A stretch of 63,763 bases of DNA, filler included, from Folioceros fuciformis (GCA_049999805.1; 3 parts of 3 records of this genome joined end to end with filler, not necessarily neighbours in it), one strand, 5' to 3'; positions 1 to 56,633 are shown, counted from the first letter of the whole stretch. Made by a program: numbers and translations. Notes: generated from the letters alone by a model not told the origin.

Positions 1-1680
1 CGATAAGGAAAAGGGCATCCTGGTCCAACCACTCTGAGGACACTGCTGTCCCGTCAGATCACACTCAGTCTGAGGGTCCTAGTTTGGGTGTGGGTAAATT
101 AAGCCCGGACAAGAAAAACGTTTTGGTAGCTATTCTACCTCCCTCCAGTGAGACTGGAGTTTGGGGGCTAGCTTTCTCCGAGATATCAACAGGTATACCC
201 ATCTGGCATCTCTATCTACAGCAACTGTGTTGACAACAGTTGCGTGCTGCTTTTATACTTGCTTGAAATGGTCTCATGATTGGTTGCCAGTCCTCTAGAC
301 CAGTTAACACCCTGGTTTATCTGTCAGGCGAATTCGGTGTCACTCATTCATCCTTCTGATGTATGCTCCCTTTCTTTCACCCTGGTGATTTGTATTTCTC
401 TTGACTTCAGTTGGAAGGCTTGCGATCTGATTGTTACAGGTAACGATTGTGCTATGTATCCAACTCTTAGACCTGCGTCTGAAGCAGGTCCAGCGCTTGA
501 CTCAAGGAACCAGTGGATGTTTATACCTGGTGGGCATGCCCCTTCAGTTCTGTTATTCAGAGATGCCAAACTCTGGCCTTTTTTCGAGCTCTGCCAGAAA
601 GGTTAGGCTGACTGTTATATTTGTATCTGGAGCACATCACGCTTGTGGTTGGTGACATCGTGATCCAGCGGCAGGGTTTCTTACTTTTGTGTGTTTGGCA
701 TGGTGCAGAAGTCGCTGTCACGTTTCGGAGTCGATTCTCTTGAAAGCGTGGGAATCCAGGAAATGTAATATGGATTGCGGGCAGCAGGTGGTCTTGTGAG
801 GTAGACTCACGCTTCGCCCCCACTTGTAAACACATGGTCTTGTAGATGTTGCTGTCTGAGCACCTGTGTTACATGATCATAGGTTCAAGTTCCTGTGTTG
901 GCAAGTCTTGGACGCTTCTAACTCTCTTCCACATGCACGTTCCAAATTCATGTTCTGGTGTTGGATCCACACAGTTATTTGCAAGAAAGTAAGAAAGCGT
1001 GAAGTGGCAGTACCCCCCTTTGCACGCCTCGTCCTTATTCCGTCGGTCACTCTTATTTCGTGCACATGGACGAGACTGTTCGAAGCATGGATTCTCCAAA
1101 GTGGGGTATCTGGTTTGGGAAGAGAAGCCAGAAGGCACGCTCCACTGATGCAGTCTTCGGAGCAGTGACCAATCACTTCCTTCATCCCGGTTCCTCAATG
1201 GTCGAAGGCAATCATCAGGAGGTGACCAGAGCGGAGTTGGCAGGCAGGAGCAGCGATTGTCAATTCATGTCCGAGGAAGAGTTAGACAGTATATGGAAAC
1301 AGGTTCACGAATTCTTGCGCACCAAACCTGCTACTCAAGCACTGACAAAACAGAAGGTGTGTTTATGACCTGACCGGCTTGCGTCGCTTGAATTCCATGT
1401 CCTTCCTTGATCGAGATCATGGGGAGAAACCCAAGTCTCTCATGCACACACACACACGTTTGTGCAGGGTTCTTTGGTTTCCATCTCAAAAACCTCTGAG
1501 AACCTGGTAGTCTGCCTCGATGCACCTGCCCTTTCCGTCAAAAAGTTCCAGCAGCAGGAGCACGCCTCTGTTTTGCAGCATGCATTCGTTTGCGTCCTGA
1601 GGCAAGCAGTGGACCTCAAGATCGCCCTTGTTGGGGACCGAGCAAACATCAAGTTACCACATTTCTTGAGTAAGAAGTGA
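1..1680 (+). pseudogene. Decayed spliced 3' extension of a DPD1-like gene (copy 1): MutS-connector-like and DnaX/STICHEL C-terminal-like segments
   Basis: KLSPDKKNVLVAILP..GVWGLAFSEISTG|EF across a GT-AG intron (193-327); YLQESKKA*SGSTPLCTPRPYSVG; last exons (to 1356 and 1468-1680) give ELDSIWKQVHEFLRTKPATQALTKQK|GSLVSIS..VLQHAFVCVLRQAVDLKI. Internal stops or frameshifts are present. Confidence 0.5.
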
Positions 1681-1942
1681 GCCCGAGGGAACACTAGGCT
1701 GAAACATTGTTTCAAAGACCACCTCTTGATTGCCAATTTCCCTGACCACAGAAACCGTTGCCACGGTATATTCGGATCCAAAAGCATTTAGCGGTGGTTA
1801 CGTCGAGGTGACAGAAAGCGTGCGATGAAACCCTAGTCTAGGTAGTTTGGTGATCCACAGTGTAGTTGGAATCATTCGAACTAACGAACAGGACTTCAGT
1901 CGAGCGGAGGAGATCTCGGTCGCGGCGACGCAAGATCCGCAG
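1..1942. repeat. Copy 1 of a 1,942-bp direct duplication (identical by eye to 15079-17020)
   Basis: Same sequence and same ORF translations at offset 15,078; the second copy ends at an N-gap. Confidence 0.95.
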
Positions 1943-4806: not shown

Positions 4807-5285
4807 TATAATGTATTTTTCTTTTAGGGCCGTTTCTCAACATGTATGTAGTTTCACTTTTCACAGTACTCCTACCTAATCAACACGAGAAATATGCAGG
4901 TGACTAAATAATGTCTTTGTGCGGATGACAAAGGGCTCTAAAGTAACACCTCACTATAGGTGTTTAAAGTAATGGGGGAACGGAAGAATTTGGGTTAAAG
5001 TAACTGCTTTCGGATGGTTAAGGGCTTCTGTGTGCATGGTTTCACGTGGGTAGTGGCCTGAGGAAAGTTTAATTGCGGATGGGGATGGAATTCCTAATCG
5101 AGGTTCCGTTATTAACCAGGGTAGGGTCTCCATTCTTTTTTGAATAGTGTTGCGGCCGCGCGAACGCAAGCCCCCATGCCACAAATCACACTATGACATT
5201 TGTTCTCGCTGACCTTCCGTAAATGATTCGGGTTTGCAGTGAGCTTTGGTGATCTGCTGCAGAATGGTGTGTGAAGAAGACGCGC

Positions 5286-6270
5286 ATTGGCGGGTCGTGG
5301 GGTGACGCCGGTTCTGGCGTTGCTCTTCGGCCTTGCCCTGGCCCTGGTACCTGTGGGAGTGCAAGCCATCTATTGCGATGAGCACAACTGCTACGATCTG
5401 CTGGGCATCACCCAGGATGCCACCTTGCAGGAGGTGAAGCAGGCCTACATGCGGCTCTCCATTAAGTACCATCCCGACAAGAATCCCGACCCCCTAGCCA
5501 ACCAGTTCTTTCTCAAGCTCGTGAATGCGTACGAGATCCTGCGAGATGAGGACCGACAGAATGGCTACGACTACGCTCTGGAGCATCCGGAGTACTACCT
5601 GTGGAACGCCGCTCGCTATTACCAGGGCTACTACGGGCATCAGGCAGATCCCTTGTCAGTGGTGCTGGGCCTGCTTGTCATTCTCTCAGGCTTCCAATAT
5701 CTCATCCAGTGAACACGCCACCGTCAGATGGTGAACTTGGTGAAGCAGACCCCCGCCTACCAGAATAAGCTGAAAGCTTTGGAACTGGAGCGTAGCGGAG
5801 GGGGCAGCAACAGGAAGATGGCGTCCAAGCCGAAGAGTAGCAGGCTCGATTCTCTGGAGCTCAGTAAGGACCTGGACCTGCAGATCCAAGGGGCAGATAA
5901 AGCGTGTGTTTGGGAATTGGTGGGGATTCGAGCAGCGCTTCTGCCCTTCACGCTGTCCAAACTTCTTTTGTGGAGACTTTGCTGGATCTGGAGGTACTGG
6001 GTGAGACGACAACCCTATACCTGGGAGGATGCTGCCCTCCTTACCAGACGTAGTCTTCGCATCAACACTGCCATCTGGGCTGGGATGGGTCATGCAGCCA
6101 GGGACAATCTTATCATCAGAAGACTGTGGCCCAAACCTAACATGAGCAAGTATGTGGAGGTCAGTAGAAAGGAAGCTAGGGAATTATGTAGAAATAGGGG
6201 ATTTGCATGTTCAGCAACTAGCAAGAAGGGGGAAAAAAAATATGGACCTCAAGATTTAAAGATATTATAA
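5286..6270 (+). pseudogene. Intronless ER-membrane J-domain protein (DNAJC25/ERdj7/C50-like), disrupted
   Basis: Signal peptide, IYCDEHNCYDLLG, KYHPDKNPD J-domain, YDYALEHP, TM segment and KQTPAYQNKLKALELERSGG. In-frame TGA at 5710-5712 (likely Trp TGG). No ATG at the start (ATTGGCG in place of ATGGCG). Confidence 0.85.
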
Positions 6271-8479: not shown

Positions 8480-9990
8480 AGAAGACTCTTCCAGGAATAG
8501 TAGGACGATCAGTAGCCCTTATAACTCATTGAGCATGTAATGTTTTTATCTTGGCTACTAGATCCACCAACCCGAGACCTCCCAAGTGCCAAGATTAAAT
8601 AATGTGTTGCCAAGCAACTTTGGGAACCCCAAAAACTCCATTCCCATATCTGCTCCATAGAAATGTGATCATAATCTATTGTAGCCTCTTCACATCCATC
8701 TTGGAAGGAGCCCATACAAACAAATAATACCTGAGGGAATCTAAAAGAATGTGGTTAATTGCTATCATCCTACCAACAAGGTTGAGCTCCAACAACTATA
8801 AGCCCAAGGCTTTTCGAATGAATTTGAGGCATACAAATTTTCCTATCTCCCCGTTCTCATCATCCTCTTAAAAGGGGAGCCCCAAATACTTGTGCATGGA
8901 GCCTGGCAAAACCCTCTTGATGCGGCTAACGCACTAAGGTGGCTCTACTAACATATTTAAGCATATCATACAAGTCTTACTCCAATTCACCTTGCAGCTT
9001 GATAGCTCGCCAAAGACCTTGACCTGTTGGAGCATGGCGTTCAAGGAAGCCTCCACCGCCGAGGAGAAGAGGAGAGTGTCATTCGCAAACGATAAAACCC
9101 TTAATTACCACCCACCTGTGTTCTGAATGCCAACAATTGTGGGGTCCTCTTTAACTGTGTGCAACAAAAAAATCTGTAATAATAAGAAACAAGAAAGAGG
9201 CTAAGGGACATCCTTACCATACCGGACGATTGATGCCAAAACATTCCATAAAAGAACCATTGACGGGCGACCGCACCTGTGTCTTCACATAAGATAGTAA
9301 TCCACCTACAGAAGCTGTTTCCAAACCCAAAAGTACGGAGGCATTTCCATAAGAAATGCCATTGAATGGAGTCATAAGCCTTACAAAAGTCTAGGGAAAT
9401 GAAGGCTATTGATTTCTTCTGTACTTGGATATTATACTTGGCTTCCTGCAAAAAAATTAAGTTGTCCAAAATACACGTATTTTGAATGAAGCTCCTCTAT
9501 TCTTTCTCAATCCATTAATCTAGAAGAGGTCGGATGCAATTAGCAAGTACCTTTTCGATCACCTTGTAAGTTGTAGTGAGCAAATTGATTGGACACCAGT
9601 TGGAAATTGACCAACTCACATCTTGCTTAGGTAGCAGAGAGATTATGCCCAAATTGAACCACTTGTCCATACTGCCTTCCTCCCAAATTTGGTTCACTGC
9701 CTCCATGAATAAAGGCTCCATAAACTCCAACCCTCAAAGCAAGAATTTTGAGGGGATACTGTCTACTGTCATGTCCAAGGATCTATTCAAGATTAATTTT
9801 CTCTTGAGAATCCTTCAAGTAGCTTTTCAGAGCTTTTTACACTAGTAGTTGCTATAACTAGGGGAGGAGTTCTCATATTAATCAAAAGCTCTTCCAAGTG
9901 CATCTTGCAACCCACAAATTTTGAATCACTACCCCATATAGGTGCGAATCTACTACCCTCAGCATCTAGGCCACCCTTATGTCACATCCT
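8480..9990 (-). mobile_element. Degenerate L1-clade LINE ORF2 (reverse transcriptase) remnant; upstream remnants probably extend to about 11400
   Basis: NWCPINLLTTTYKVIEKVLANCIRP and ISLDFCKAYDSIQWHFLWKCLRTFGFG, with many stops and frameshifts. Same family as 57683-60600. Confidence 0.85.
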
Positions 9991-12388
9991 CATTGATGGC
10001 TTTGTAGATGGATATTAAGAATGCTTTCAGCATCATCTCTAGATTCACTATCTTCTTGAAGCTCAAGAGTGCAGGATGTCCATTGTCTTGTCTCATCTTA
10101 TTTGTTCTCTTCTTCTACGGCTTACTATCCAAGATCTACTACCAACACAGCTCGGCCATGAAGAGGTGCTCAATTTTTTATTTAGCGATGGGTACAAAGG
10201 CAAGGGGATCTACTTAGAAGCGTTCTTTTTGCTATGGTGCATTTTGTGTTGCTGGTGGGGGGTAAGGAGGAATGATTTCATCCCCATGCAAGAACCTTGG
10301 GGGCTCTTATGGGTCTTTGTTGGTCTTTAAGCCATGAAGGCCACTGCCCTGGTTGCCTTTCACGATAGCTAGGCCTTCTTGACTACAATTTTGGCCTCTT
10401 GTTGTTTGCTCAATTATTCCCCCTCATTGAAGATTTTATCTTAGGGTGTTGAGGAGGTTGTTTTCCCTTTATATGTGCCTTTTAGGTAAGTGAGAGACTC
10501 TTTACCTTTGGAGGCTCGTAAGACCCTACCTCCTTTCACCACCTTGTCTAAAAAAGGGTTGAGGGGTGTTGAGGCCTCCCTCATGGAAAGGCATTATGGT
10601 TAGATACTTAGAGCCCTTCACTTGGACTCATCCATCTCCAAGTCTTCTTGGGCTCGTGTTTGTTTATGTCAAGTAAAGGAGCAGGCTCTTAGCTTTTGGC
10701 ATGCCCCTAGATCCAAGCATTTTGAATTGCACTAGCAACTTTCGTCGTCATGATGAGATTTTGAGTCCAAACCTACCCCTCGGCTTTTTCTCTCTACGTG
10801 CAATTGGGGGGTTGCGATTGTCGACACAGGGTTCCATCGAGCATATTGTCCCTTTGGGGGGCACTACAATGCCATCCATGATATAGTCCAAGATATTATG
10901 TTCTCAATGGCTAGGGAGTGTGGGTTTCTTCCACACATGGAGTGTTTGTATACTTTGCACAATGGGGCTTTACTTAGGGCCGGCCTTTTCTTTACTAGGG
11001 GGAGTAGGTTTGTGTCGCTGATGTGGTTGTCACAAATCCTAATAGGCATTCAATTTATGAGCAGGTTGTCATCAACCCCCTTAGATAGACGACGCAGGGT
11101 TGTGCAAGTGCTAAAGTCCATAAATATTCTCCCCAACAAGATGGGCTTGTTTTCATCCCCTTGCTCTAAAAACCCATAGAGCCATGGACAAGTACTTTTC
11201 AAGGTTTATCAAGGAGTATACGAAGGTATGTTATATTCATAAGAATAAGGTTCTTCCTCTTTCCTCAGCGGTGGCCTTCTTCCATTGCGGATCCATTGCT
11301 CCATTGCTTTACAAAGAGCNNNNNNNNNNCATTGCTCCATTGCTTTACAAAGAGCATTGGTCAATGCGGTCTTTAGAATAACAACAAGTGCATTTCAAGC
11401 AGCTTCTTGTTGGTAGGCCTTTTGTTATTTCACATCATGATATTTTGGGAGTAATCAGTAGTTTTGAGAATGATGTTTGAAGGGACTAGTACCTTTACGG
11501 CAATACTCTTAAGTACCGTTACGAAAATACTCTTATGGTTTTTGGCTTTGTTTGGGTTGTTCTGCTCATCTTTAGAGTAGATGGGATTTTTCATTTATTT
11601 TTAATATTAAAAAAACTTTCACTCCATATTTTCTGGTGTCATATATATTTGTTAGAACGGCTGCTGTCCCTCTTGAGGCTGAAAGCTTTCCCTCTAGGCG
11701 AATGCTTCACTCTAGTGGTTGTGTATCCTTGCTCTTTGCACAATGAAGCTCTAAATTTCGAAGAATATGGCTCTGGTCGAATACCGTTTGTCTTTTGAAC
11801 TGAACCCTTTCAAACAAACGTCTAGACTGCGCTTCTTGGTCGAGTACAGTATTCCACGTTTGGTACTGGTACTCCATTGTTGTTGCTGCCCCGCCAAGAT
11901 AGTTGTTACTTCCCTTTGAGCACCGAACAAATCAGTCCGGGACAGTGCGGCCTGGTCGCAGAGGAGGTGAGGACATCAAAATTTCGCGACTTGGTCCTTT
12001 GCCGAGAATATGCATACAAGTATAGTTGTGACGCTGAAGGACCCCGGCTCTGCTGACGAGGCTCATGTACCGAATTCTGGCAAGGCTTGCATGCGCCGCT
12101 CAGTGTCCCACAATCATCGAGCTGGCCTCACCGAGATGTACCGCGCTCGTGCCCACATCGTCTAAGTACTTCGCGAAGGCAGGCAAAGGGGCAAGAAAGA
12201 AAATCTGGAGCACCGGATAACGGAACAGATGTTCGAGGAGCGATGGCGATGGCCCTTCGAGAAGCAGAAACTTCTAGAGTACCAGCCTCCTGAGGCATGA
12301 GGCGCAGGAGCCGCAGCAGGTGGAGCGGACATGAGCCTGGGATGGGATCGGCTTCCGGCAAGTCGCTGGGACTGGCAGCCGGCAGGTG

Positions 12389-13138
12389 CTGGTCGGATCG
12401 CAGGCGTGGAGTGGGCATTGCTACCGTCCGTGTCCGACATCGGGAGGATGGCAAGGACCAATACCTGGAATACTCCAGCTGTGGGCCTCACAGGCGAGAT
12501 TCGAGGAGCAGGAGACGCTGGAGTGGGAGGAAAGTGGGCGCTTTGCACCTCAGTATGCCTGGGTGGTGTGCCCCGGTCGAAGAAGCTTTGGGATTTGGTT
12601 GATTGATTTGGGTGCATTTGCGATAGGTGAGGACTCGAATTTTGGATCCTGCTGTGCGATTGTAGTGTGTCGCAAGGGTGATTTGGATGTCAGAATGTTT
12701 GAATCCGGCGTTTCCGTTCTGTTGCTGGCGGCAGAGAGCATGCTGTGCGTGCTGGCTCGCAGGCTGGTCTGATCGCAAGCGTGGAGTGGGTATTGCTGCC
12801 GTGCGTGTGCGACCTCGGGAGGATGGCAAGGACGAATACTTGGAATGCTCCAGCTGTGGGCCTCACAGGCGAGGTTCGAGGAGCAGGGGAGGCTGCAGTG
12901 GCAGGAAAGTGGGAGCTTTACAGCTCAGCCTGCCTGGGAGGTGTGTCCCGATCGAAGAAGCTTTGGAATTGGGTTGACTGATTTGCCTGTATTTGGGAGA
13001 GGTGAGGACTCGAATTTTGGGTCTTGCTGTGGGATTGTAGTGTGTCGCAAGGGCAATCTGGATGTCAGATTGTTTGAATTCGGCGTTTCCGTTCTGCTGC
13101 AGGCGGCAGCGAGCATGCTGTGCGTGCTGGGTCGCAGG
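12389..13138. repeat. Diverged tandem duplication, 2 x 375 bp
   Basis: 12389-12763 aligns with 12764-13138; paralogous ORF translations (RMARTNTWN.PAVGLTGE). Confidence 0.9.
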
Positions 13139-15062
13139 CTCTTTGTACTCTGTCGGAAGGGAAGGTAGTTCTCTCTTAAGGACGTACTTCTTTCAAGGTG
13201 CTCTGGGATGGCGGACATCAGTCAGACATCAGCTGCTGTGGGCTGGTCCTAGGGTTTTTGTGGGTGTAGCATCATCCAGTTGTGTGGCACAACGTCAAGC
13301 TGAGAATGGTAGATTTGGCAATGGAGCACAGCTTGCCAGTCCACCTGGACAGAGGGGGCTGGATGATGACCATGTCAGAGGTCAAGCTGAATCTGGTGTG
13401 CATCATCACAGTGTTGATTCTGTGGTGCAGGAAGTGGGGGACAGTGTGCCCAGTCCGTCAACTGGAAGCCATGCCCTGCCAAGAAAGAATCAGCTTACCT
13501 TCATCGTTTTCGACATTGAGACCACAGGATTCAAGCGCGGTGACGACCGCATCATTGAATTTGCTGCTCGTGATTTAGCTGGTGGTGAGAACAGCACCTT
13601 GCAAACTCTAGTTAATCCCGAGGGAGTATCGGTTGGCAGCAGTTTTAGTACTCACGGTATTTCTGACAAGATGATCAACAATCCTGAGACCCCAAAGTGA
13701 GTCTGGGTGGGCCTGTCCCCCGATCCCTGCCTTGGATACAGTCTGTTTCTTGTGACGAGCTTGCTTCTTATGGTTGTGGATATCCTCAGGTGGGACGAGG
13801 TTGCCCCAACCATTGTGGAGTTCGTGGAGTCACGTCGAAAGGGCAACGGACATGTTCTATTGGTTGCCCACAATGCGAAAGTCTTTGATGTTCCGTTCCT
13901 CATCAGCCACTTCGAGCGTAGTTCCGTGCAGCTTCCTGAGCACTGGCTGTTTCTCGACACCTTGCCTCTAGCAAAAGCTGTGATGGCTGCCAAAGGTATG
14001 ATGACTTCGGGAAGCGACTGAGGTTCTGTAGGTATGGGACTGTGTATGGATGGTGGAGGGACAATGACGGCCAGTTCTGCTAGGAAGAGCCAGGCATGGA
14101 AGAGTGTTCCTCAGATGCTGAGAAGAGTCCTGAACCATGGGGTCACTAATGCACAAAGAAAAGGAAGACTAGGTTCATGAAGGAGGCCGTGCGGCACAGT
14201 TGACCCACTTGCTTGCCATAGTTGTTCATCTGCCAAGGGTCTATCGGGCCGTAGGGCTAAGAATCTGAATGTGAAAATTGTGTGTGAGAGCCAAGAGGGT
14301 GGCGGAAGTTCGCACTTCTCTGGTACACAGCTAGCTGTCTAACCAGTTCTGCTGGCATAATCTCCTGACATTTTCAATTGAAGGAGTATCAGGTATTTGT
14401 GAATACTGACGATGACCAACATGAAGTACTTAACATGTGTTCCCATGAGATGTACGATTTCGAGTGTCGAGCTGTTTGATCGCCAGGTTGATTGCCTTCC
14501 ATGTTTACCTCATGGACTGGATTCTGTTGGTCTTGCAGGTGGGAAAGGTGCAAACCTTAGTGCTCTCCGTGACTTCTACAGGTTGCCAGATGCTGGGCAA
14601 GCCCACAGGGGCCTGCCTGATGTGAATGTCCTAGTGTCTGTGCTTCGATATCTTATGAGGGAACTTCGACTGACACCAGATGATTTGGTAGAGAGGGCGT
14701 TCAGAGCCAGCGATTGTAAGAAGCACTCACAGGGAAGAGGCACTGACGGAGCTACTAAGAGAGGAGATGACTTCACGGCCTGCACCATTTCTGACACAGG
14801 TGACACAGAACTGTCGAGTGTAGTCGTCACTGGCAAGGTGGTTCCTGATACTGAAGAGGTTATGGACGAAATGAATGAGGAAGAGGGTATCATTGCAGGT
14901 CCTGCCTCAGGACATGGCATTTTTGACGTCCAAGCAGAAGCTCTTGCTAGATCACTTGAGCCTGGCCTGGTTCCTCAGCCTTTGTCACTGATAGAAGAGG
15001 ATCCAGCTGGGATTGAGGGGAACTCAGGGGGGAATTTCTCCCTTGACGATGCTGGCAGTTAG
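13062..15062 (+). CDS. DEDDh 3'-5' exonuclease, DPD1-like (organellar DNase family)
   Basis: Exons about 13062-13696, 13790-13995 and 14539-15062 (GT-AG). ExoI FDIETTG, RIIEFA..GGENSTLQTLVNP, ExoII VAHNAKVFD, LDTLPLA, ExoIII AHRGLPDV. N-terminal extension and acidic tail; start codon uncertain. Confidence 0.85.
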
Positions 15063-16758
15063 AAACGTGACCCAACACCGATAAGGAAAAGGGCATCCTG
15101 GTCCAACCACTCTGAGGACACTGCTGTCCCGTCAGATCACACTCAGTCTGAGGGTCCTAGTTTGGGTGTGGGTAAATTAAGCCCGGACAAGAAAAACGTT
15201 TTGGTAGCTATTCTACCTCCCTCCAGTGAGACTGGAGTTTGGGGGCTAGCTTTCTCCGAGATATCAACAGGTATACCCATCTGGCATCTCTATCTACAGC
15301 AACTGTGTTGACAACAGTTGCGTGCTGCTTTTATACTTGCTTGAAATGGTCTCATGATTGGTTGCCAGTCCTCTAGACCAGTTAACACCCTGGTTTATCT
15401 GTCAGGCGAATTCGGTGTCACTCATTCATCCTTCTGATGTATGCTCCCTTTCTTTCACCCTGGTGATTTGTATTTCTCTTGACTTCAGTTGGAAGGCTTG
15501 CGATCTGATTGTTACAGGTAACGATTGTGCTATGTATCCAACTCTTAGACCTGCGTCTGAAGCAGGTCCAGCGCTTGACTCAAGGAACCAGTGGATGTTT
15601 ATACCTGGTGGGCATGCCCCTTCAGTTCTGTTATTCAGAGATGCCAAACTCTGGCCTTTTTTCGAGCTCTGCCAGAAAGGTTAGGCTGACTGTTATATTT
15701 GTATCTGGAGCACATCACGCTTGTGGTTGGTGACATCGTGATCCAGCGGCAGGGTTTCTTACTTTTGTGTGTTTGGCATGGTGCAGAAGTCGCTGTCACG
15801 TTTCGGAGTCGATTCTCTTGAAAGCGTGGGAATCCAGGAAATGTAATATGGATTGCGGGCAGCAGGTGGTCTTGTGAGGTAGACTCACGCTTCGCCCCCA
15901 CTTGTAAACACATGGTCTTGTAGATGTTGCTGTCTGAGCACCTGTGTTACATGATCATAGGTTCAAGTTCCTGTGTTGGCAAGTCTTGGACGCTTCTAAC
16001 TCTCTTCCACATGCACGTTCCAAATTCATGTTCTGGTGTTGGATCCACACAGTTATTTGCAAGAAAGTAAGAAAGCGTGAAGTGGCAGTACCCCCCTTTG
16101 CACGCCTCGTCCTTATTCCGTCGGTCACTCTTATTTCGTGCACATGGACGAGACTGTTCGAAGCATGGATTCTCCAAAGTGGGGTATCTGGTTTGGGAAG
16201 AGAAGCCAGAAGGCACGCTCCACTGATGCAGTCTTCGGAGCAGTGACCAATCACTTCCTTCATCCCGGTTCCTCAATGGTCGAAGGCAATCATCAGGAGG
16301 TGACCAGAGCGGAGTTGGCAGGCAGGAGCAGCGATTGTCAATTCATGTCCGAGGAAGAGTTAGACAGTATATGGAAACAGGTTCACGAATTCTTGCGCAC
16401 CAAACCTGCTACTCAAGCACTGACAAAACAGAAGGTGTGTTTATGACCTGACCGGCTTGCGTCGCTTGAATTCCATGTCCTTCCTTGATCGAGATCATGG
16501 GGAGAAACCCAAGTCTCTCATGCACACACACACACGTTTGTGCAGGGTTCTTTGGTTTCCATCTCAAAAACCTCTGAGAACCTGGTAGTCTGCCTCGATG
16601 CACCTGCCCTTTCCGTCAAAAAGTTCCAGCAGCAGGAGCACGCCTCTGTTTTGCAGCATGCATTCGTTTGCGTCCTGAGGCAAGCAGTGGACCTCAAGAT
16701 CGCCCTTGTTGGGGACCGAGCAAACATCAAGTTACCACATTTCTTGAGTAAGAAGTGA
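15063..16758 (+). pseudogene. Decayed spliced 3' extension of the DPD1-like gene (copy 2): MutS-connector-like and DnaX/STICHEL C-terminal-like segments
   Basis: The reading frame stays open after TAG 15060-15062 up to a donor at 15271; motifs are as in copy 1. Confidence 0.5.
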
Positions 16759-17020
16759 GCCCGAGGGAACACTAGGCTGAAACATTGTTTCAAAGACCAC
16801 CTCTTGATTGCCAATTTCCCTGACCACAGAAACCGTTGCCACGGTATATTCGGATCCAAAAGCATTTAGCGGTGGTTACGTCGAGGTGACAGAAAGCGTG
16901 CGATGAAACCCTAGTCTAGGTAGTTTGGTGATCCACAGTGTAGTTGGAATCATTCGAACTAACGAACAGGACTTCAGTCGAGCGGAGGAGATCTCGGTCG
17001 CGGCGACGCAAGATCCGCAG
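15079..17020. repeat. Copy 2 of the 1,942-bp duplication
   Basis: Matches 1-1942 and ends at the gap. Confidence 0.95.
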
Positions 17021-17120
17021 NNNNNNNNNNNNNNNNNNNNNNNNNNNNNNNNNNNNNNNNNNNNTTAATTAATTAANNNNNNNNNNNNNNNNNNNNNNNN
17101 NNNNNNNNNNNNNNNNNNNN
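17021..17120. other. Assembly gap with artificial six-frame-stop linker
   Basis: N runs flank TTAATTAATTAA. Confidence 0.95.
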
Positions 17121-19110
17121 CCCCAACTATCTCATTCAGATTGAGTGTAGAAGGTTGACCACTTGCTGCTGCTGAGTAGGCATCACGCAAAGTGGCATTT
17201 TGGCTGGAAATAAACGATTGGTAGGATAAGGGCAGGCTAATCAGCAGCTGTGCTGTCATCTCCACTTCAATGATCTTGGTACCTAACGCAGCAAGTTGTG
17301 CTCGTAGGTGCCTCAACTTGGTGACATGAGCACCAACTGGTTCCCCCTCCCTCAACCTCAAACTGTGAAAGTCGTTTCTTGCGTTGATCATAGTACATAT
17401 GTTTCTAACCTGATAAGTGTCATGAAGTTGTTTCCACACAGCTTCTACTGACTCAAGCAAATCAACCTCAGTGACTGTAGTCTCATCCAGGCCTGACAAG
17501 AGGATGGCAAATGCAACCTTGTTGCACTTCTTCCACTTTGCCTTGTCATCAGGCGTGGGCTGAACTGCAGCTATAGCTGGTACAAGGAAAGGATTGGCTA
17601 TAGTGCCATCAACATACTCCAGAACGTTGCGAGCATCAAGGTTAGCTCTCATACGTGCTTTCCAGCTTTAAAAACGTAGTGCTTTTCCATCAAACCTATC
17701 TTTTTCCTTAAACTCACCGTAATATGATGATCCTACAGATATGGACAAGGGTCCTTGACCTGTAGTCATGTTGACACCAACATAAGGTGGAGGAAGTGAT
17801 GGATTTGAGAAGAGCCAGGAGAGTTGATCAGGATCACTATCAGAATCAATGTCTGCGACAAACAGGGACATACTCTACTATATGCTCAGAAACCAGAACG
17901 GGCGCCATATGAGACATGAAATGGTAAGTTCTAAAACTTAAATGCCCCCTTCAAGTTTTTTTTTTTTTTTTTTTTTAAGTGAATAACGTTTCAACAAACC
18001 CTAAGCATGTCACATGACATCTAACTGGTAACCGTTTGTGCCTGCAGACATTCTCAGAATGCAAGGGACGCGACCCAAGCATCAATCAGGAAGACAGCAA
18101 GGACATCTCCAACACCTGGACACTCCAACCAATAGGCGTAGTCTTCAGTGGCGCCTGTTGAGAGCTTCCAAGGCAGCGTGTTGTAAATTCACAAGTTGTC
18201 TCGCACCCCTTCAAATCTGAGGGGTCATCGATGGCTAATCCTCAGCGCAAGCTCCATCTCTCATGGGAACAAGAGATTCCAGGTACAGCGCTGTGACTGG
18301 TTGCACTACAGAGGTAGGAGCAAGTGATTGTTGAACTCTGAATTGAGCAAGCTGAGTAACAAGTTCTGCAACTTCAGATTGCAGGGACTCCACACTTCTG
18401 ATAACTTCACCAAGTCTTGGAATTGTGAAGGCAAAGGTGTGATCAGCAAATGATTCAATACTGTTCAACTTGAGGATGAGTCGGTCAGTTGCATGAGGAC
18501 ATGCTGTCAGATCTTGTTGCTCAAGTAATGCCGCATCTTTATGAACTTCTCCTAACCAATTTTCTCGTTCAATCCTTGATTGCAGAAGCTCAAGGCGCCT
18601 GGAAACCACTCGACTGGAATAGCTGTGGGGAGAGGCAGAAGATTCTCTCACCTTGTCCTTCTTCCTGGCATCTGAGATCAGATCATTGTGTAGTCTACGA
18701 ATGTAGTCAGCCCTGGCAGCCTAAGGAGATGAAGAGATAGGCCAATTACGCCTACCACTCCTTCTAGGCATTTTAAGCACAAGAACAAAAGTCTGATATG
18801 TCTATCATCTAAGATGGCTAGGGCACCAGAATAGACACACTAGACCAAACATGTTTGCAATCACATTGCAAACAACATGAGTAACAATACAGCGGAAGTC
18901 TCAGAGCATCGAGAGCTCTGATACCATGTTATTTTATGCATTTGTTCAAGGTTTACTTAGACAAAGAACACTTGAAGCAATGCAGCAAAAGAACTTAATT
19001 AAATTTATACAAAATTGTAGCTTTTATAGTGTCAAGTTGTTAAACCCAAAAGGCATGTGTTTACCCGAGTTAGGTTAACTTAACCCATGGTTATCTAAAT
19101 AACCTTAACA
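17121..19110 (-). mobile_element. Ty1/Copia element A, 5' part (LTR 18927-19110, PBS, ORF0, gag), cut by the gap
   Basis: 184-bp TG..CA LTR; PBS TGGTATCAGAGC (tRNA-iMet) at 18915-18926. gag 17871-17121 (EFKEKDRFDG..WKARMRA..LRLREGEPVGAHV..LLISLP) has one in-frame TAA at 17668-17670. Confidence 0.9.
18235..18771 (-). pseudogene. ORF0 of Copia A (accessory ORF upstream of gag), one in-frame TAG
   Basis: MPRRSGRRNW..SP*AARADYIRRL..VVSRRLELLQSRIERE..coiled-coil; TAG at 18721-18723. Confidence 0.55.
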
Positions 19111-28290: not shown

Positions 28291-29679
28291 TCATACCATG
28301 TAGATGACAACAAAGCAAGGGAGCACAGCCTTGGCATTGAAGACGAGGAGATCCCCCATGTTGGAGTAGGGGCCGACATCCGAGGCCACAGAATCGTATC
28401 CGGCAGGAGGGGAAGAGTGAGCATCAAGGGCGAGGGAGTCGGGGCCGGCAGCAGCCGTGTGCACTCTCCCAGCAATGACTCTGCACACCACCATGGCGCG
28501 CCGGGCCTTGCACACATCGTCGTCGTCGAACCCTGGCCAGTAGGCGATGGAGTCGTGAGCCTTGCCGCTGGTGGAGGTGGTCTGGATGCCTTTCCCCTCG
28601 TCCCTGTGCGAGGAGAAGCCCTGCCGGATGATCTGACACACGCTGCAGGAGGGCAGGAAGCAGAGGCTGGTGGAGCCGCTGTAGCCCAGGGAGCACATGA
28701 CGGTGGTGCCGTAGAATCGCAGGAGCTCGTTCCCGTCCGCCATGCACCGCGGATGCTTCTTTGGGAGCTTGTTGGCCCGCGCCTTCACCGCGTCCCGGAA
28801 CTCCTCGAACTTGGCGATGGTCCTCTGCGTGTTGTGCACCTTGAGGATGCGCTCGATCTTCCCGCACGGGATCTCCTTCTTTAGCCAGCTCGTCCTGAAG
28901 ATGATCTCCACCACGTTCCGCGACGAGTCGCCCGGATGGAGCTCCGTCACTGCACAATCGCACACGCACATTGCATTGGCATTGCATCTTCAGGAAAAGA
29001 GAAGCAAGCGCACTCCAATTACCCCATACAACTGTGGCCCGAGGCAAAGAGCAACTGGAAGCACTAATTTGGTACCAGCGTGGCGGATGATCTGGTGCTG
29101 CTCCAGCGCTTCCACCCGGTTGAAGAGCTGCCCACATTTCTGGCACCCGGGCTTGGGGGAGTCGCACGCCACGCCCGCCTCCCGCTCCAGCGCCTCGTAC
29201 CCCTGCCCCAGAGTGCAGTCGTAGCAGCCCGAGAATCTCCGCAGCGGCGTCCCCCTGCTCACGTAGCTGGAAGAGATAGGCGTCCCGCAGTAGGAGCTGA
29301 TGCCTTTTTCCCTCAGCAGTCCCCGCTCCCCGACCACGTCGTTGTCCACGCTGTCGAAGAATTCGCTCACGCTGTCCCGCGACACCGGGCTGCACGACGA
29401 GCTCTGCTTGTGCATCACCCTGGTGTTGCCGTGAATCACATCCTTGAGCGACCTGGCGCAGGCTCCCGAGCCAGGAGCCTTCCTGTCCACTTTTTCCCTC
29501 TCCCGCTCCCGCTCCCGGTCCCGCTCCCGGTCCTTCCCTTCCCTCTCCCGGTCCTTCCTTTCCCTCCCCCCTTTCTTTCCATTCTTGGATTTCCCACTTC
29601 CCGCCCGCGGCTCATGCACCTGCTCCAAGTCCGTCTTGCAAGACAGCGTCTTCTTCCATGTCTGCCATGGCGCCGGCAT
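28291..29679 (-). CDS. Plant C2H2 zinc-finger plus PARP/ADP-ribosyltransferase-like domain protein (420 aa, 2 exons)
   Basis: Exons 29679-29076 and 28949-28291 (GT-AG). WQTWKKTLSCK, LKDVIHGNTRV, CQKCGQLFNRVEALEQHQIIRHA|VTEL, KKHPRCMADGNELLRF, TTSTSGKAHD, VCRVIAGRV, LPCFVVIY. Confidence 0.9.
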
Positions 29680-30967
29680 CTCGTTCCCCCCTCCCGCTGC
29701 TCTCTCCCTTCCCTTCCTACGGTCCTTCCCTTGCCCTCCTCACCTACCACGCCCTCGCCCTCCCGACCTCCTTTCCCCGGAATTCCCCTCTCATCCTCCC
29801 CATTCCGCCCCTGCAATTGCAGCCGGCCGGGAATGCGTTACCGCGCGTCCGAATTGCAACCAGCGGATTCGTTTGCTGCTGGCGGGGGGCAAGCCACATG
29901 CTTTCCGCGTACGACAAGCGGGAGCGAGAGACCGCGAGAGCAGAGTCCTGAAGCCAAGCAGGACACGGGGGAGGCAGCCAAGCGCGCAGTGTAACAGAAA
30001 CAGAATGCGGGAGGAGCCGGACAGCAGCAGGGCAGACACCGACACAAGGGAAGGTGACCTGCTGGGAGGCGCAGGAAATGGAAACTCCTAGAACCGGATT
30101 GCTCGCAGACTGCAAGGACCGGCCTTCTCCTTCTCCTTCTCTTCTTCTCCTCTTCTCCTCTTCTCCTCGTCCTCCTAGGACTGACTGACTCGCTTCACCG
30201 AGCGATGAGAGAGACGAGACCAGGCATAGCCAGAGTCTCTCACGAGAGAGCCCGGCAGGAAGAAAGAGAGAGAGGGCAAGGCCGCTGTCAGACCACATGA
30301 GGCTTGTTTAATAACAATGCATTATTTACCATATCCTAAATATCTCCGAAAATCGCACGGCGTACCCGGCTAAGCACGCCCCTCTTCCTGCCTCCCTTTT
30401 CCCACGGTCCGACCGCGAGCCGCACAGCTCGCGTTTCCACACCCAGCCTCGACACGTCAAATTTGTATCTCGGCAAACGCAGCGCAGTCGTGAACTTGAC
30501 TCCAGGTCCCGTCAGGTCGGGCCCGCGTTGCATCTGGCTTGGTAAAAACCCGTTTTGGAACGGGTTATTATGTATGGGGCAAGTCGCCATGCCGACCAGA
30601 CCGTTTGAAAGGCTCGAGCCGATGACGCACGCTGGGACCCGGTTGTTGCGACTTGGCACATGGTTACTGTTTACACGACGCAGTACCTCATGTCATACGG
30701 TCTACAGTTGGCTTGGAGGCGACTCCGTCAGGTGGGGAGCCGCCCGTTCCATGCGGCCGTTTTTGTGGGTCCCGTTGAGCTGGGCTGGGCTGGGCTCGGC
30801 TTGCCTTGCCTTGCCTTGGGTTGGCTTGCCTTGGCTTGGCTGCGTCTCTAAATCTAATGCCAAATTCAAAAATGAGCTATATTTGAACGAAAAGAAGTCT
30901 CGACTGTACATGAATACCTTATGTTGCAACCGTACGTACGGTGTATCCATGCCAAATGTACTCAACA

Positions 30968-36446: not shown

Positions 36447-37416
36447 ATTTGATGTTTGTGTCCAAGGATCTTGCTGCAGACATGGTTACATCATGTTGGA
36501 CTTTCTCTAGACAATATATCATATTACGTCTGGACATATTTGTAAATAAATTATACTGTGGTCTGGACTTTGTGATACATAGATGTATGGAGTAGCTGGG
36601 AGAGCTTGTTTCTTGTTAGCCACCGAACTTGATCCATTTAGAGGAATAGATGAGGTTATCGCTCTTAAAAAAATATTAAACTCCAAGTAAGGAAGTGTGA
36701 AAGGAAAAATCCTGCCTGCGAGGGTGGGGCTCGGGCAGACGAGGATGAGAAATCGAGAATCGGGAAGGGGAGCGACGAAAGATCGGGACGTGAGCCTCGG
36801 AGGCGGCAGACAAGCGAGATGGTACAGGATAAATGCTACACGGGTCTGGTGTAATGTGAACAAGTTGTACGTGTCCTGGCAGCGTGAAGGATTCCAACGT
36901 TCCGGCTCTGTGAATCTGGGCCCAGCAGCAGAAGCCGCGGGTCGTGGCCAACAGCGACGAATCGCCTGCCGCTGTCTGCCAAACTGTCCTGCCTGCCCCT
37001 CTCGCTGTGTTGCAATCAAAGCTCATCACGAGAGCGACCAGTCGTTCCCGAACCCTAAACCCCGGGGCAACCCCTGCGTCCCAGCGTGCCGGGCAGGCGC
37101 CCAGCTTGCGTCCCGTGCAGCCATGGCGGAGACCGTGCACACGCTTTGGAGGCCCAGGCAGGATGGCGTTGGCGTCATCCATCCCGCCTTGAGCAGTATA
37201 TAAGCCTCCTCTCCCGCCCTGGGCAATCCACATTCCCAAGAGTGATCAGCTCCTGCTCTTTGCTCCCGCTTTCCTCTGTTCCTGCTGTTTCCCCCCTTCC
37301 TTCTCTTCCTTGCTTCCTCTGCTTCCGGCTCCAGTTGCCTGGAGGGGAGCAAGCCCTGGTAGGGTTTCGGTGTTGGGTCCAGGTGAGGTGAATTTCGCGC
37401 TTTGTGGGTGGGTGCC

Positions 37417-41248: not shown

Positions 41249-42110
41249 TCAGTGACTTTTAACGTACTCCTGTACTACGTTCAACCCCTCAGTCTCTTCG
41301 CCGTAATCCTGAAAGAAATGGCGGAAAACCAGCCTGTTAGTTCTACAATTCCAGAGCTGCGATGTGCGCCACATTTCTAGATGCTGGAAAACTTTGTGGT
41401 GTTATAATTCAGAGCCCCCATTAGACGAATAAGAAGAGCCCGCACCTTAATCACGACACATGAGCAGCCAACCACCTTCCGCGCTTTCCCTTCGGAATCG
41501 ATCTTGCAAAGCTGCAAAACAAGAAAAAGAAAACCCTGAACCGACTCAGCTGGAGACACATAATAACAGTCATCTACAAACTCAAGTCATTTAGGAGATG
41601 CCACGCTTCCATATCACTCCACGCACCCCTGCCCATTCTCCGAGTTTCTTGGCACTTGGTACCGAGATGAGACTGACGCTGTGCTCACTGCAGAGGGCTC
41701 GAACCAGTTTGGAGTAGTCAGGCTGATCGCAGTCGGCGGCCAGTACACAAAGCTGCGCCGCATGCTTTTCGATGGCTTTGGCTGCCTCGTGCAAACCACG
41801 AGCTAGGCCATCATGCGCCAGCGATTTCTTCAATACCAGCTGAAGACCAGTTAGAAGGTCCATCGGCTCCCCGAGCGTCGGGCCTGAGGAAGCTGCCTGG
41901 TCGGCCAGAACATCTCCGGCCGCTTCTGGCTCCCTGCTCGCAACAAACAGCGCACATGGCGACACCACAGAATCGCTCAGATCAAACCCGTTCTTAGTTC
42001 AGCAGCGACGCCAGGCTCTTCCACATCATTCTTCTGCAAACAACCAAGACGAGGAAACACAGCAAAAACTGAAATTCTGGCAGGGCAGATTGCACATACC
42101 CGTCAGACAT
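41249..42110 (-). CDS. RPS12: 40S ribosomal protein eS12, 4 coding exons
   Basis: Exons 42110-42100, 41933-41627, 41511-41446, 41308-41249. [60 protein letters not shown]. Confidence 0.97.
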
Positions 42111-56387: not shown

Positions 56388-56633
56388 TCTGCTGTACAGT
56401 ATCGCGAACTGGAACTGTAGACCTGCAGGTGAAAATCACGCACCACGAGACCTTGCGGTTACAGGTATGAACCAGTTAGGTTCCACACCCGCGTGCCGAT
56501 TGGAATTGTTGAGTGTCTTCCACGCTGTAAGTTGCAAGTCTGTCGATTTGATCGATCGCGTCGCTTCAAATCTCACATTCCTTGTAATGGCATCTTGCGA
56601 TTGATGCAGAGATGCGCGCGTGGGCAAGACGAA

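Follow-up and report, generated by a model that had tools for sequence, protein, structure and literature searches.

The stretch of DNA analysed here, the window, comprises 63,763 nucleotides from Folioceros fuciformis (GCA_049999805.1; three records joined with filler). It carries the frame of a DPD1-type DEDDh exonuclease, which is spread over three exons and ends at TAG 15060-15062, followed on the same strand by relic exons with collinear homology to the plant DPD1-MutS1 fusions. The ribosomal protein S12 exon has its best named matches in a fern and a moss (80-85%), and the clusters of the closest exonuclease and S12 hits contained no near relative with a name; the sequence reads as that of a streptophyte, probably a land plant without seeds. 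Splice joints were taken from contigs of the public run X1, presumed to be RNA, whose contigs carry intron-skipping joints. The GT..AG joints in these contigs include 13696>13790, 13993>14537, 15267>15403, 15677>15785 and 15876>16051. The features are as follows.

1..1942, plus strand: copy 100% identical to 15079-17020 (relic and 3' flank), starting at the window's first base (self-blastn)
12388..13140, no strand assigned: 5' tandem duplication, unit of ~375 bp, 88.6% identity, in the exon/intron region of the gene (self-blastn)
12735..12940, plus strand: upstream exon in spliced contigs, exonuclease frame open and without ATG (contig joints, spliced translation)
13103..13696, plus strand: exon with the N-terminal extension and Exo I motif (FDIETTG) (Pfam, contig 13101-13696, profile alignment)
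13790..13995, plus strand: exon carrying Exo II (LVAHNAKVFD) (joints 13696>13790 and 13993>14537, GT..AG; Pfam RNase_T positions 68-129)
14539..15062, plus strand: part of an exon, holding Exo III (AHRGLPD) and ~140 linker codons, ending at TAG 15060-15062 (profile, contig 14537-15025)
15063..15270, plus strand: exon continuation past the TAG, with the old linker end and the MutS connector start (NVLVAI..WGLAFSEISTG) (tblastn E 4e-5, profile, contig 15079-15267)
15406..15427, plus strand: 22-nt micro-exon (..EFGVTH) (joints 15267>15403 and 15427>15566; frames)
15566..15679, plus strand: MutS_II relic exon (..LVGMPLQFCYSEMP..) (tblastn P0003 934-964, joint 15677>15785, profile)
15787..15878, plus strand: MutS_II relic exon (..FGVDSLE..LRAAGGLV) with in-frame TAA 15844-15846 (joints 15677>15785 and 15876>16051; tblastn, profile)
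16053..16434, plus strand: exon with the MutS_II end (YLQESKK), TGA 16078-16080, MutS_III start, deletion junction and first third of the C-terminal domain (tblastn, profile, alignment; contig 16051-16218 retains the TGA)
16546..16758, plus strand: last exon, completing the DnaA_N-like domain (STICHEL-type, PF23007) and closing with stop TGA 16756-16758 (Pfam, profile)
17021..17120, no strand assigned: assembly gap, runs of N around the TTAATTAATTAA linker, 262 bp past the relic stop codon

The exonuclease frame

The Pfam family RNase_T (PF00929) matched the open reading frame of exon 13103-13696 with 34.1 bits, above the cut-off of 24, and the second exon alone with 19.3 bits, the domain being spread over three exons. 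A profile of five intact fusions scored 284 bits on the exonuclease. All five catalytic residues stand at the columns conserved in those fusions, namely D and E in FDIETTG, D in HNAKVFD, and H and D in AHRGLPD; equivalent residues are given for Physcomitrium in the accessible text of PMC12292046. Moreover, 64 of the 78 columns invariant among six intact fusions are kept. The predicted enzyme is of the DEDDh type and belongs to the plant DPD1 clade: in a quick tree of 57 rows with SH-aLRT supports, it falls within a clade of 38 plant DPD1 and DPD1-MutS1 rows (SH-aLRT 97), inside which its placement is not settled. Its end branch is the longest in the neighbourhood (0.68 vs 0.04-0.44), which fits relaxed constraint.

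The stop-free run covers ~440 exonuclease codons and ~124 codons upstream. Each copy of the 375-bp unit holds one in-frame ATG, at 12687 and at 13062, and both lie inside segments that the X1 contigs splice out; exon 12735-12940 is flanked by the joints 12624>12733 and 12938>13101 (each GT..AG, cut +2). The sole splice form seen in the X1 contigs has no in-frame ATG upstream of Exo I. The start at ATG 13062, at which an earlier note on this DNA had placed the beginning of the gene, is lost with segment 12941-13102 in the spliced contigs. A comparison with P0131 had suggested ATG 13208 for the old start, but this codon is not in frame with the exonuclease and meets a stop after 14 codons.

The MutS relic and the C-terminal domain

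Beyond the TAG, the same frame stays open for 69 codons (15063-15269, ending ..KLSPDKKNVLVAILPPSSETGVWGLAFSEISTG) up to a donor GT at 15271, and the acceptor AG at 15404-15405 continues it as G-E-F. An X1 contig joins at this place (15267>15403, cut +3, GT..AG), and the coordinates and this joint agree with the open frame and the splice to EF described in the earlier note. The same is true of its YLQESKKA followed by a stop and two later exons: YLQESKKA-TGA-SGSTPLCTPRPYSVG occupies 16053-16150, and the coding blocks after TGA 16078-16080 are 16081-16434 and 16546-16758. The intron between these blocks (16435-16545) is predicted from sequence only, and X1 cover is nil over 16408-16881. A splice bypassing TAG 15060-15062 was considered, and the X1 contigs report no joint between 14539 and 15270.

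In tblastn against the window, the intact fusion P0003 gave collinear matches for its residues 857-896 at 15153-15272 (E 4e-5), 934-964 at 15587-15679, 970-994 at 15802-15876, 996-1030 at 16054-16164 and 1657-1755 at 16297-16719 (E 6e-12); P0005, P0006 and P0009 also match the relic collinearly. The relic was placed in the alignment by mafft --addfragments. With the profile of five intact fusions, the read-through MutS_II part reached 65.6 bits (profile positions 678-842) and the C-terminal domain, both exons joined, 84.6 bits (positions 1520-1610), while among 2491 six-frame ORFs the stretch 15063-15270 was matched at E 2.9e-7 and the last exon, 16546-16758, at E 1.8e-15. Riccia P0158 shares 45% identity with the locus in MutS_II, 51% in the C-terminal domain and 50% in the exonuclease. 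All three modules of the intact fusions thus have collinear homology here, and their order on one strand is the ancestral one found in six relatives (exonuclease, linker, MutS_II, C-terminal domain). Judged by these alignments, the match between relic and fusion is beyond chance by far, and there is very little doubt about the identification of the relic as such.

The region aligned is the one that Pfam assigns to MutS_II in intact homologs (P0003 872-1002, P0158 896-1026), and with the profile score this bears out the MutS connector identity proposed earlier. The suggested Pfam and profile check came out in part: the plant fusion profile matches the relic, but Pfam alone found no MutS family on single relic exons at E <= 1, so the homology is visible only with plant MutS1 sequences and profiles. 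A word-based search of exon 3 with the read-through tail against longer proteins had no match at E <= 0.001, and the 69-residue tail, compared with PDB sequences by phmmer, gave one unrelated match (E 0.76) and no MutS.

The MutS part is heavily damaged. Domains I, IV and V, and III past its first residues, are absent from the window in the profile scan of 2491 six-frame ORFs (63.7 kb), and profile positions 843-1519 have no match at the locus or in any window ORF. Domain I, which would bear the FxE mismatch-binding motif, is not present, only ~90 codons separating the exonuclease linker from MutS_II. Connector domain II is not intact: its frame is broken, a TAA and a TGA interrupt it, and it has an internal gap; it keeps 11 of 25 invariant columns, and six of the lost ones fall in gaps. 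Of these lesions, the earlier note had the TAG and TGA right and missed TAA 15844-15846 and the 2-nt break after exon 15406-15427; its view that the mismatch-binding and ATPase parts were deleted holds for the window save the first MutS_III residues. After the micro-exon 15406-15427, the frame is displaced by 2 nt relative to the following relic exon, and the joint at the donor of the micro-exon is a non-canonical AT..AG. For this joint at 15427/15428 (ATCCTT after the cut), a U12-type origin was weighed and dropped: the sequence matches a branch site poorly, and a cryptic donor combined with an internal deletion accounts for the joint just as well.

No frame joining DPD1 and MutS1 I-V exists at the locus: the frame stops at TAG 15060, and a MutS core is missing. 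As read from its sequence, the locus cannot make a MutS protein; it descends from the DPD1-MutS1 family, which is already known, and is a degenerate, non-working member of it. There are three disabling lesions in ~145 MutS_II codons vs none in 440 exonuclease codons, a contrast for which a rough Poisson estimate gives P ~1e-4 at the MutS_II density and ~0.02 at the whole-relic density. Furthermore, six of the seven contig-vs-genome differences in the relic frames change a residue, which together with the lesion contrast points to relaxed constraint on the relic. The last 198 relic codons (16081-16434 and 16546-16755) have no stop and no frame break.

For the C-terminal domain, PF23007 scored 31 bits in Selaginella (above the cut-off of 27), 22.4 in Riccia, 21.6 in P0003 and 19.6 in P0006. 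The last exon of the locus alone reached 18.6 bits (E 0.0021; profile positions 33-86), below that cut-off, the first third of the domain lying on the previous exon. The domain is homologous to the C-termini of the fusions, of which Selaginella P0009 passes Pfam, and keeps 25 of 30 invariant columns, compared with 64 of 78 in the exonuclease and 11 of 25 in MutS_II. An Atlas search with the Selaginella domain returned leads only, PF23007 at 0.91 and DnaX_C and DUF3646 at <0.9. PF23007 also occurs near the end of the DnaX of Pseudanabaenaceae L081 (residues 402-475 of 532), and the resemblance to DnaX and STICHEL recognised earlier is thereby supported. In the cyanobacteria checked, the module sits in DnaX, not in MutS; both cyanobacterial MutS1 proteins scanned (2/2) consist of domains I-V only, without PF23007, and the query beyond residue 1664 had no match in any of the best 80 prokaryotic loci. 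The published DPD1-MutS1 domain maps, in the accessible text of PMC12292046, make no mention of this module.

It is a doubtful reading that DPD1-MutS1 has in its C-terminal domain a third, so far unreported module, through which the enzyme may be tethered to the machinery of organelle replication. Recruitment on the eukaryotic side would follow from its lack in cyanobacterial MutS1. The domain may have outlived the MutS core, and exonuclease and C-terminal domain may both be or have been used without MutS, because the deletion of III-V kept the frame and the conservation of the domain equals that of the exonuclease. If true, the locus would be a physical intermediate in the break-up of a modular gene, and would also illustrate how stand-alone DPD1 genes repeatedly arise.

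Proposed history and competing explanations

The ancestor encoded one long protein with a transit region and DEDDh 3'-5' exonuclease, a cyanobacterial-type MutS1 (I-V) and a C-terminal DnaX/STICHEL-type DnaA_N-like domain. Intact homologs of this kind exist, with RNase_T and MutS I, II, III, IV and V in five of nine matches (P0009 without a MutS_IV match) and in Riccia P0158, and the ancestral fusion proposed in the earlier note is correct but already known from PMC12292046, as far as its accessible text goes. The MutS part has lost domain I, ~630 residues of domains III-V and an internal piece of domain II, and its frame is disabled by TAG 15060 in what was the linker, by two more in-frame stops and by a frame break. 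The exonuclease frame is untouched; if translated, it would give a stand-alone DPD1-like product of ~450-525 residues with the former interdomain linker at its end, and this product would presumably degrade or trim organelle DNA in the manner of DPD1. The relic exons, apparently still spliced at the old borders, would most likely form a long, intron-containing 3' UTR. We consider it somewhat probable that this whole account is right, namely that we are dealing with a decayed copy of the organellar DPD1-MutS1 gene in which the exonuclease still works.

A possible though less probable explanation is that the entire locus, exonuclease included, is a recent, transcribed and maybe duplicated pseudogene, and that the gene in use, either an intact fusion or a further DPD1, lies at another genomic site. 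The spliced form seen has no in-frame ATG, the 375-bp tandem duplication rearranges the 5' region, and the exonuclease branch is long. A stop upstream of several spliced introns typifies targets of nonsense-mediated decay, and here the stop is followed by at least four spliced introns. The relic also seems to be present at least twice: the 1942-bp redundancy that begins at 15079 and the contig-genome divergence of ~2.8% to the right of it (10/357 letters), vs 0.09% to the left (2/2352), make a second relic copy probable. However, the ~440 and ~124 codons without a stop contrast with three lesions in the adjacent MutS_II, the catalytic residues and most invariant columns of the exonuclease are kept, and a stand-alone protein of like size and layout is annotated in a liverwort (Calypogeia P0008). 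A true fission into the exonuclease and a separate DnaA_N-like ORF of ~100-166 codons (from an internal ATG in 16081-16434 to TGA 16758), both still in use and the latter with a transcript or start of its own, is improbable. The intact last 198 relic codons, a column retention at an exonuclease-like rate and above that of MutS_II, and a III-V deletion that left the frame intact within one exon would fit it, but the contrast with MutS_II weakens to 25/30 vs 11/19 without gapped columns, no promoter, transcript start or joint was seen for the small ORF, and the domain, with no known stand-alone role, is the tail of a 1200-1860-aa protein in every intact relative.

We regard it as very improbable that exonuclease and relic were misjoined in the assembly at the repeat boundary 15078/15079, even though 15079 is the exact start both of the 1942-bp redundancy and of an X1 contig, the divergence shifts sharply near it and a scaffold gap follows 262 bp after the relic end. 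In order, strand and position the parts agree with the intact gene of six relatives, which a chance misjoin would not reproduce, and a relic of such a gene must have had an exonuclease upstream. Since none of the X1 contigs listed bridges 15025-15079, co-transcription across the TAG is read from assembly order and bin depth. The mean depth of bin 14986-15143 (72.8) exceeds what contigs 14537-15025 and 15079-15267 alone give, which by our own arithmetic implies unlisted contigs over 15026-15078.

Returning to the degenerate copy with a working exonuclease, the locus would represent one concrete route of separation, with the MutS core deleted, a stop in the linker, the exonuclease frame whole and the old exons still spliced. 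On this subject we found PMC12292046 and a review citing it, and no description, as far as their accessible text goes, of how or how often DPD1 and MutS1 separated. Taken with the short forms from liverworts and algae that the tree contains, the locus suggests that MutS1 was lost with retention of DPD1 more than once. Neither the family nor the fusion is new; the conserved DnaX/STICHEL-like C-terminal domain in plant MutS1 offers a testable lead to the partners of the protein.

Relation to known fusions and stand-alone exonucleases

The plant DPD1-MutS1 fusion was published in 2024 (Sloan et al., Plant Cell, PMC12292046). According to its accessible text, seed-free plants carry DPD1 joined to a cyanobacterial-type MutS1 whose function is not known, while in seed plants a stand-alone DPD1 degrades organelle DNA. 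Named examples of the fusion are Riccia sorocarpa KAL3686956.1 (P0158), Selaginella SELMODRAFT_440920 (P0009) and Adiantum GOP47_0028498 (P0004), and RNase_T, MutS domains and PF23007 occur together in Riccia P0158 (1864 aa), P0003, P0006 and Selaginella P0009. The locus resembles these proteins in its N-terminal DEDDh exonuclease (49-54% identity), in module order, and in a recognisable MutS_II and C-terminal domain (45% and 51% to Riccia). It differs in the lack of domains I, IV, V and nearly all of III, and in a frame broken by TAG, TAA, TGA and a 2-nt shift. Compared with the cyanobacterial DnaX and with STICHEL, the C-terminal domain is here attached to, or left from, MutS, and not part of a clamp-loader subunit.

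The seed-plant DPD1 (Arabidopsis AT5G26940; accessible text of PMC12292046 and PMC12079397) is of the same clade, has no MutS part and shares the five catalytic residues. In contrast, the locus has MutS wreckage behind the exonuclease and a ~140-residue linker tail, its exonuclease is a predicted one, and it stands outside the seed-plant clade (24 rows, SH-aLRT 98). A further group comprises the short, exonuclease-only DPD1-like proteins of seed-free lineages whose relatives carry the fusion, known as annotated proteins only: P0007 (506 aa), Calypogeia fissa P0008 (549 aa), Spirogloea P0201 (319 aa) and Klebsormidium P0218 (806 aa). P0008 and P0007 are sister to the full fusion of Riccia (SH-aLRT 99), and P0008, with its exonuclease at 215-384, ends in the linker before MutS_I, much like the frame at the locus. 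The green-algal DPD1-like exonuclease-RecG fusion, as described in the accessible text of PMC12292046, likewise joins an exonuclease of the same family to an organellar DNA-binding enzyme; the partner differs, and the fusion is intact there and a relic here.

State of the MutS relic

Past the TAG at 15060-15062, which closes the frame of a DEDDh exonuclease, the frame stays open for 69 more codons and ends in ..NVLVAILPPSSETGVWGLAFSEISTG at a GT donor, exactly as the earlier note had described. The stretch YLQESKKA-stop-SGSTPLCTPRPYSVG, which runs from 16053 onward and whose stop is the TGA at 16078-80, and the two later exons were also found farther on, in the order given by that note. The TGA that it read following ..GEFGVTHSSF proved to lie inside an intron. 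The observation is confirmed, and the main points of its interpretation are supported. The window itself is eukaryotic and plant-like: its introns are short and have GT..AG borders, it contains copia and LINE elements, and its genes include those of ribosomal protein S12, AIR synthase and a DnaJ protein.

Features of the window
5275-6270, +: DnaJ-domain gene (Pfam DnaJ, 71.5 bits)
9101-9496, -: putative LINE-type reverse-transcriptase fragment (by eye only)
12388-12765 and 12763-13140: tandem duplication of the gene's 5' region (375 bp, 88.6% identity)
13.1-15.06 kb, +: DEDDh exonuclease, three exons (Pfam RNase_T, profile)
16081-16434 and 16546-16758, +: two last exons, ending at TGA 16756-58
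17121-17667, 47202-48927, 51366-56435 and 61674-62720, -: copia-type LTR retrotransposon sequences
28291-29739, -: GC-rich gene (~60%), ORFs of 232 and 249 aa, no Pfam match
37387-39585, +: AIR synthase (PurM-like) gene exons
41591-41998, -: ribosomal protein eS12 exon (78-91% identity to plant S12 proteins)
58867-59373, -: LINE-type reverse-transcriptase fragment (Pfam RVT_1)

In one copia element, the long open frame of gag (655 aa) and that of integrase/RT (1034 aa) have a lone stop between them, and a gag fragment begins directly after the N gap at 17021-17120. The DnaJ gene is followed by an ORF in the next frame that has no Pfam match, and the S12 exon shares 80-85% identity with proteins of ferns and mosses. 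By eye, the gene at 28291-29739 (-) appears to resemble a plant zinc-finger protein whose C-terminal region is conserved.

The identity of the relic with the connector domain of MutS (MutS_II), which the earlier note had proposed, was borne out by P0003, an exonuclease-MutS1 fusion protein, and by a profile of five fusions. The tblastn matches of P0003 form a collinear series along the window: residues 321-467 and 440-595 align to the exonuclease exons, 857-896 to 15153-15272 (E 4e-5, 50% identity), 934-964 to 15587-15679, 970-994 to 15802-15876, 996-1030 to 16054-16164 and, after a jump from 1030, 1657-1755 to 16297-16719 (E 6e-12). Pfam places MutS_II of P0003 at 872-1002 and MutS_III from 1027. 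Applied to the spliced read-through translation, in which X replaced each stop and the frame break, the profile scored the exonuclease part at 284 bits. Its positions 678-842, which cover MutS_II and the opening residues of III, scored 65.6 bits, and positions 1520-1610, which cover the C-terminal domain, scored 84.6 bits. The Pfam check for MutS_II was negative, with no MutS family at E <= 1 on any single relic exon, and phmmer found no MutS match for the 69-residue tail among PDB sequences. A six-sequence profile was scanned against all 2491 six-frame ORFs of the window, and it recovered just the pieces named above, with E 2.9e-7, 0.1 and 0.79 for MutS_II and E 2.6e-6 and 1.8e-15 for the C-terminal exons. 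MutS I, IV, V and the bulk of III were absent from these ORFs on both strands, and the absence of I and V upholds the earlier claim that the mismatch-binding and ATPase parts were deleted.

Domain I is missing, with just ~90 codons between the exonuclease linker and MutS_II; ~20-25 residues are gone within domain II, and ~630 residues across domains III-V are missing relative to intact relatives, the junction of this last loss lying inside one open exon (16081-16434). The frame is also interrupted by TAG 15060, TAA 15844-46 and TGA 16078-80, and by a 2-nt frame shift after the 22-nt exon 15406-15427. The TGA at 16078 is not an assembly error, because record 6 (16051-16218) of X1, a public sequencing run whose contigs were compared with the window, has the same TGA. 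The MutS_II relic carries three disabling lesions in ~145 codons and preserves 11 of 25 invariant columns, six of those lost sitting in gaps.

Exonuclease frame, splicing and copy number

On the exonuclease, Pfam RNase_T reached 34.1 bits with the ORF of exon 1, against a cut-off of 24, and 19.3 bits with exon 2. Its five catalytic residues align with the profile of five fusions, and 64 of the 78 columns invariant across six fusions are preserved. The open frame has ~440 codons (13103-15059), to which the spliced form adds ~124 open codons upstream of 13103; by a rough Poisson estimate, the exonuclease frame would be expected to hold ~9 lesions at the density of the MutS_II relic and ~4 at that of the whole relic (P ~0.02). 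Between contigs and genome, the exonuclease ORF proper shows a single difference, which is silent, and another at 12888, in the open frame of the upstream exon, changes a residue; in the relic frames six of seven differences alter the residue.

The frame has no ATG upstream of the Exo I motif in the splice form of the X1 contigs, and the candidate ATGs at 12687 and 13062 each lie within a segment that these contigs join across. The start proposed earlier, ATG 13062, is in the exonuclease frame but within such a segment. The predicted product would have 454 residues from ATG 13062 and 525 from ATG 12687; in the latter the exonuclease domain would begin near residue 217, compared with 215 in P0008 and 209 in P0007, two short DPD1-like liverwort proteins. 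Both ATGs are in the exonuclease frame, one in each copy of the 375-bp duplication, and similar Cys/Arg-rich peptides come after them. The missing start and the long tree branch (0.68) speak against a working exonuclease; the open frame, the preserved residues and the pattern of differences speak for it. On balance, the scales tip slightly towards an exonuclease that is still in use.

X1, whose kind is only guessed as RNA, covers 54% of the sampled words of 13000-17020. Its contigs join across GT..AG borders in the 5' and exonuclease part (12624>12733, 12938>13101, 13696>13790, 13993>14537) and in the relic (15267>15403, which is the splice from STG to EF read in the earlier note, 15677>15785 and 15876>16051); therefore the molecules in X1 had undergone splicing, which still uses the relic exons at borders that appear to be the old ones. 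One contig (13968-14566) retains the 543-nt intron. The joint 15427>15566, after the 22-nt micro-exon, is a non-canonical AT..AG with an intron beginning ATCCTT, and its donor at 15427/15428 is probably cryptic, the outcome of an internal deletion. The alternative of a U12-type donor that has decayed was considered for this site and found no support.

Positions 1-1942 are 100% identical to 15079-17020 (period 15,078 bp), and the latter segment ends at the N gap 17021-17120 with a TTAATTAATTAA linker; this self-overlap stems either from a tandem duplication of very recent date or from an unresolved redundancy of the assembly. One X1 contig begins exactly at 15079, and none among the listed contigs bridges 15025-15079. 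Left of 15025, in exonuclease exons and intron 2, contigs and genome differ at 2 of 2352 letters (~0.09%), versus 10 of 357 (~2.8%) right of 15079, in the relic, which suggests that the relic has another copy or haplotype of slightly different sequence. A wrong join between exonuclease and relic is unlikely, because the order and strand of the pieces reproduce the ancestral gene. Read most simply, the relic, or else the entire 15-kb unit, exists in at least two copies with slight differences that the assembly did not resolve.

The C-terminal domain

The final 198 codons of the C-terminal domain hold zero lesions. With 25 of 30 invariant columns preserved, the domain matches the rate of the exonuclease and exceeds that of MutS_II. 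This better preservation may be chance, since the contrast narrows to 25/30 versus 11/19 when gapped columns are left out; the domain could also have stayed useful once the MutS core was lost, which is not our main reading.

At the end of the fusions lies Pfam PF23007, the DnaA_N-like domain of STICHEL and DnaX; its score passed the cut-off of 27 bits in Selaginella (31.0 bits) and fell below it in the Riccia sorocarpa fusion P0158 (1864 aa, 22.4 bits), P0003 (21.6 bits) and P0006 (19.6 bits). Two fern-type proteins are without PF23007 in Pfam, and their own C-termini still match the C-terminal exons of the window. Among prokaryotes, cyanobacteria (Pseudanabaena, Tumidithrix) come closest to the MutS part of the fusions, with 40-42% identity. 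In the query of this prokaryotic search the C-terminal domain occupies residues 1776-1855, and none of the best 80 of 288 confirmed loci (374 pattern matches) matched past residue 1664; the two cyanobacterial MutS1 proteins that were scanned, of 901 and 829 aa, both consist of domains I-V alone. PF23007 was found in one of three cyanobacterial genomes searched (30 bits), at residues 402-475, near the C-terminus, of the 532-aa DnaX of a Pseudanabaenaceae MAG. In the other two, no match reached E <= 0.01, and the domain is either non-universal in cyanobacteria or too diverged for the model. Since PF23007 occurs in a cyanobacterial DnaX as well as in the fusions, the likeness of the last domain to DnaX and STICHEL, drawn in the earlier note, holds. 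From these sequences, the domain seems to have been gained once the gene was no longer in the cyanobacterium. The main text of PMC12292046 uses neither the word STICHEL nor the word DnaX, and none of the papers available to a literature search joins STICHEL with MutS; recognising a DnaX/STICHEL-type module at the C-terminus of plant MutS1 is new with respect to that main text, as available.

Place among DPD1-type exonucleases and their fusions

With the N-terminal exon as query, exhaustive searching by HMMER returned 168 proteins at E <= 0.001, 51 of them at E <= 1e-10, and because the best identities were 57-64%, there is no close relative among the sequences searched. Against longer proteins, the Exo I exon matched 9 of 76 candidates at E <= 0.001. 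Five of these (P0003, P0004, P0005, P0006 and P0009; 1208-1761 aa) combine RNase_T with MutS domains and are the intact Exo-MutS homologs that the earlier note had sought; P0002 has RNase_T and MutS_I, and three are exonuclease-only or fused to PPR repeats.

A quick tree, with SH-aLRT as its only support, was built from 57 exonuclease domains, namely 59 hits covering at least 160 of 196 query residues, from which three near-identical P0003-cluster members were taken out and to which the window was added. The window exonuclease falls within the plant DPD1 clade (SH-aLRT 97) and outside two further clades, that of seed plants (24 rows, 98) and that of seed-free land plants (9 rows, 89), in a comb of unsettled order with Spirogloea (319 aa), Klebsormidium (806 aa, exonuclease only) and Mesotaenium (1128 aa; exonuclease, MutS_I and MutS_III). 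Among liverworts, the full fusion of Riccia is sister to the short Calypogeia protein P0008 (549 aa), which stops in the linker ahead of domain I, and P0007 (506 aa). The sequences thus suggest that MutS was lost and the exonuclease kept several times, the short forms being annotated gene models that are possibly truncated.

The ancestral Exo-MutS1 protein of the earlier note is right, yet it is already in print. The available text of Sloan et al. (2024, PMC12292046) reports the fusion of a DPD1-type exonuclease with a cyanobacterial-like MutS1 from liverworts, mosses, lycophytes, ferns and some green algae, and describes seed plants as being without it; the available text of a 2025 review (PMC12079397) repeats the fusion, and among the papers available, 'DPD1-MutS1' occurs in versions of the 2024 work only. 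Beside these known fusions, what is new in Folioceros fuciformis is a degenerate derivative, showing how the MutS part can go while the exonuclease frame survives.
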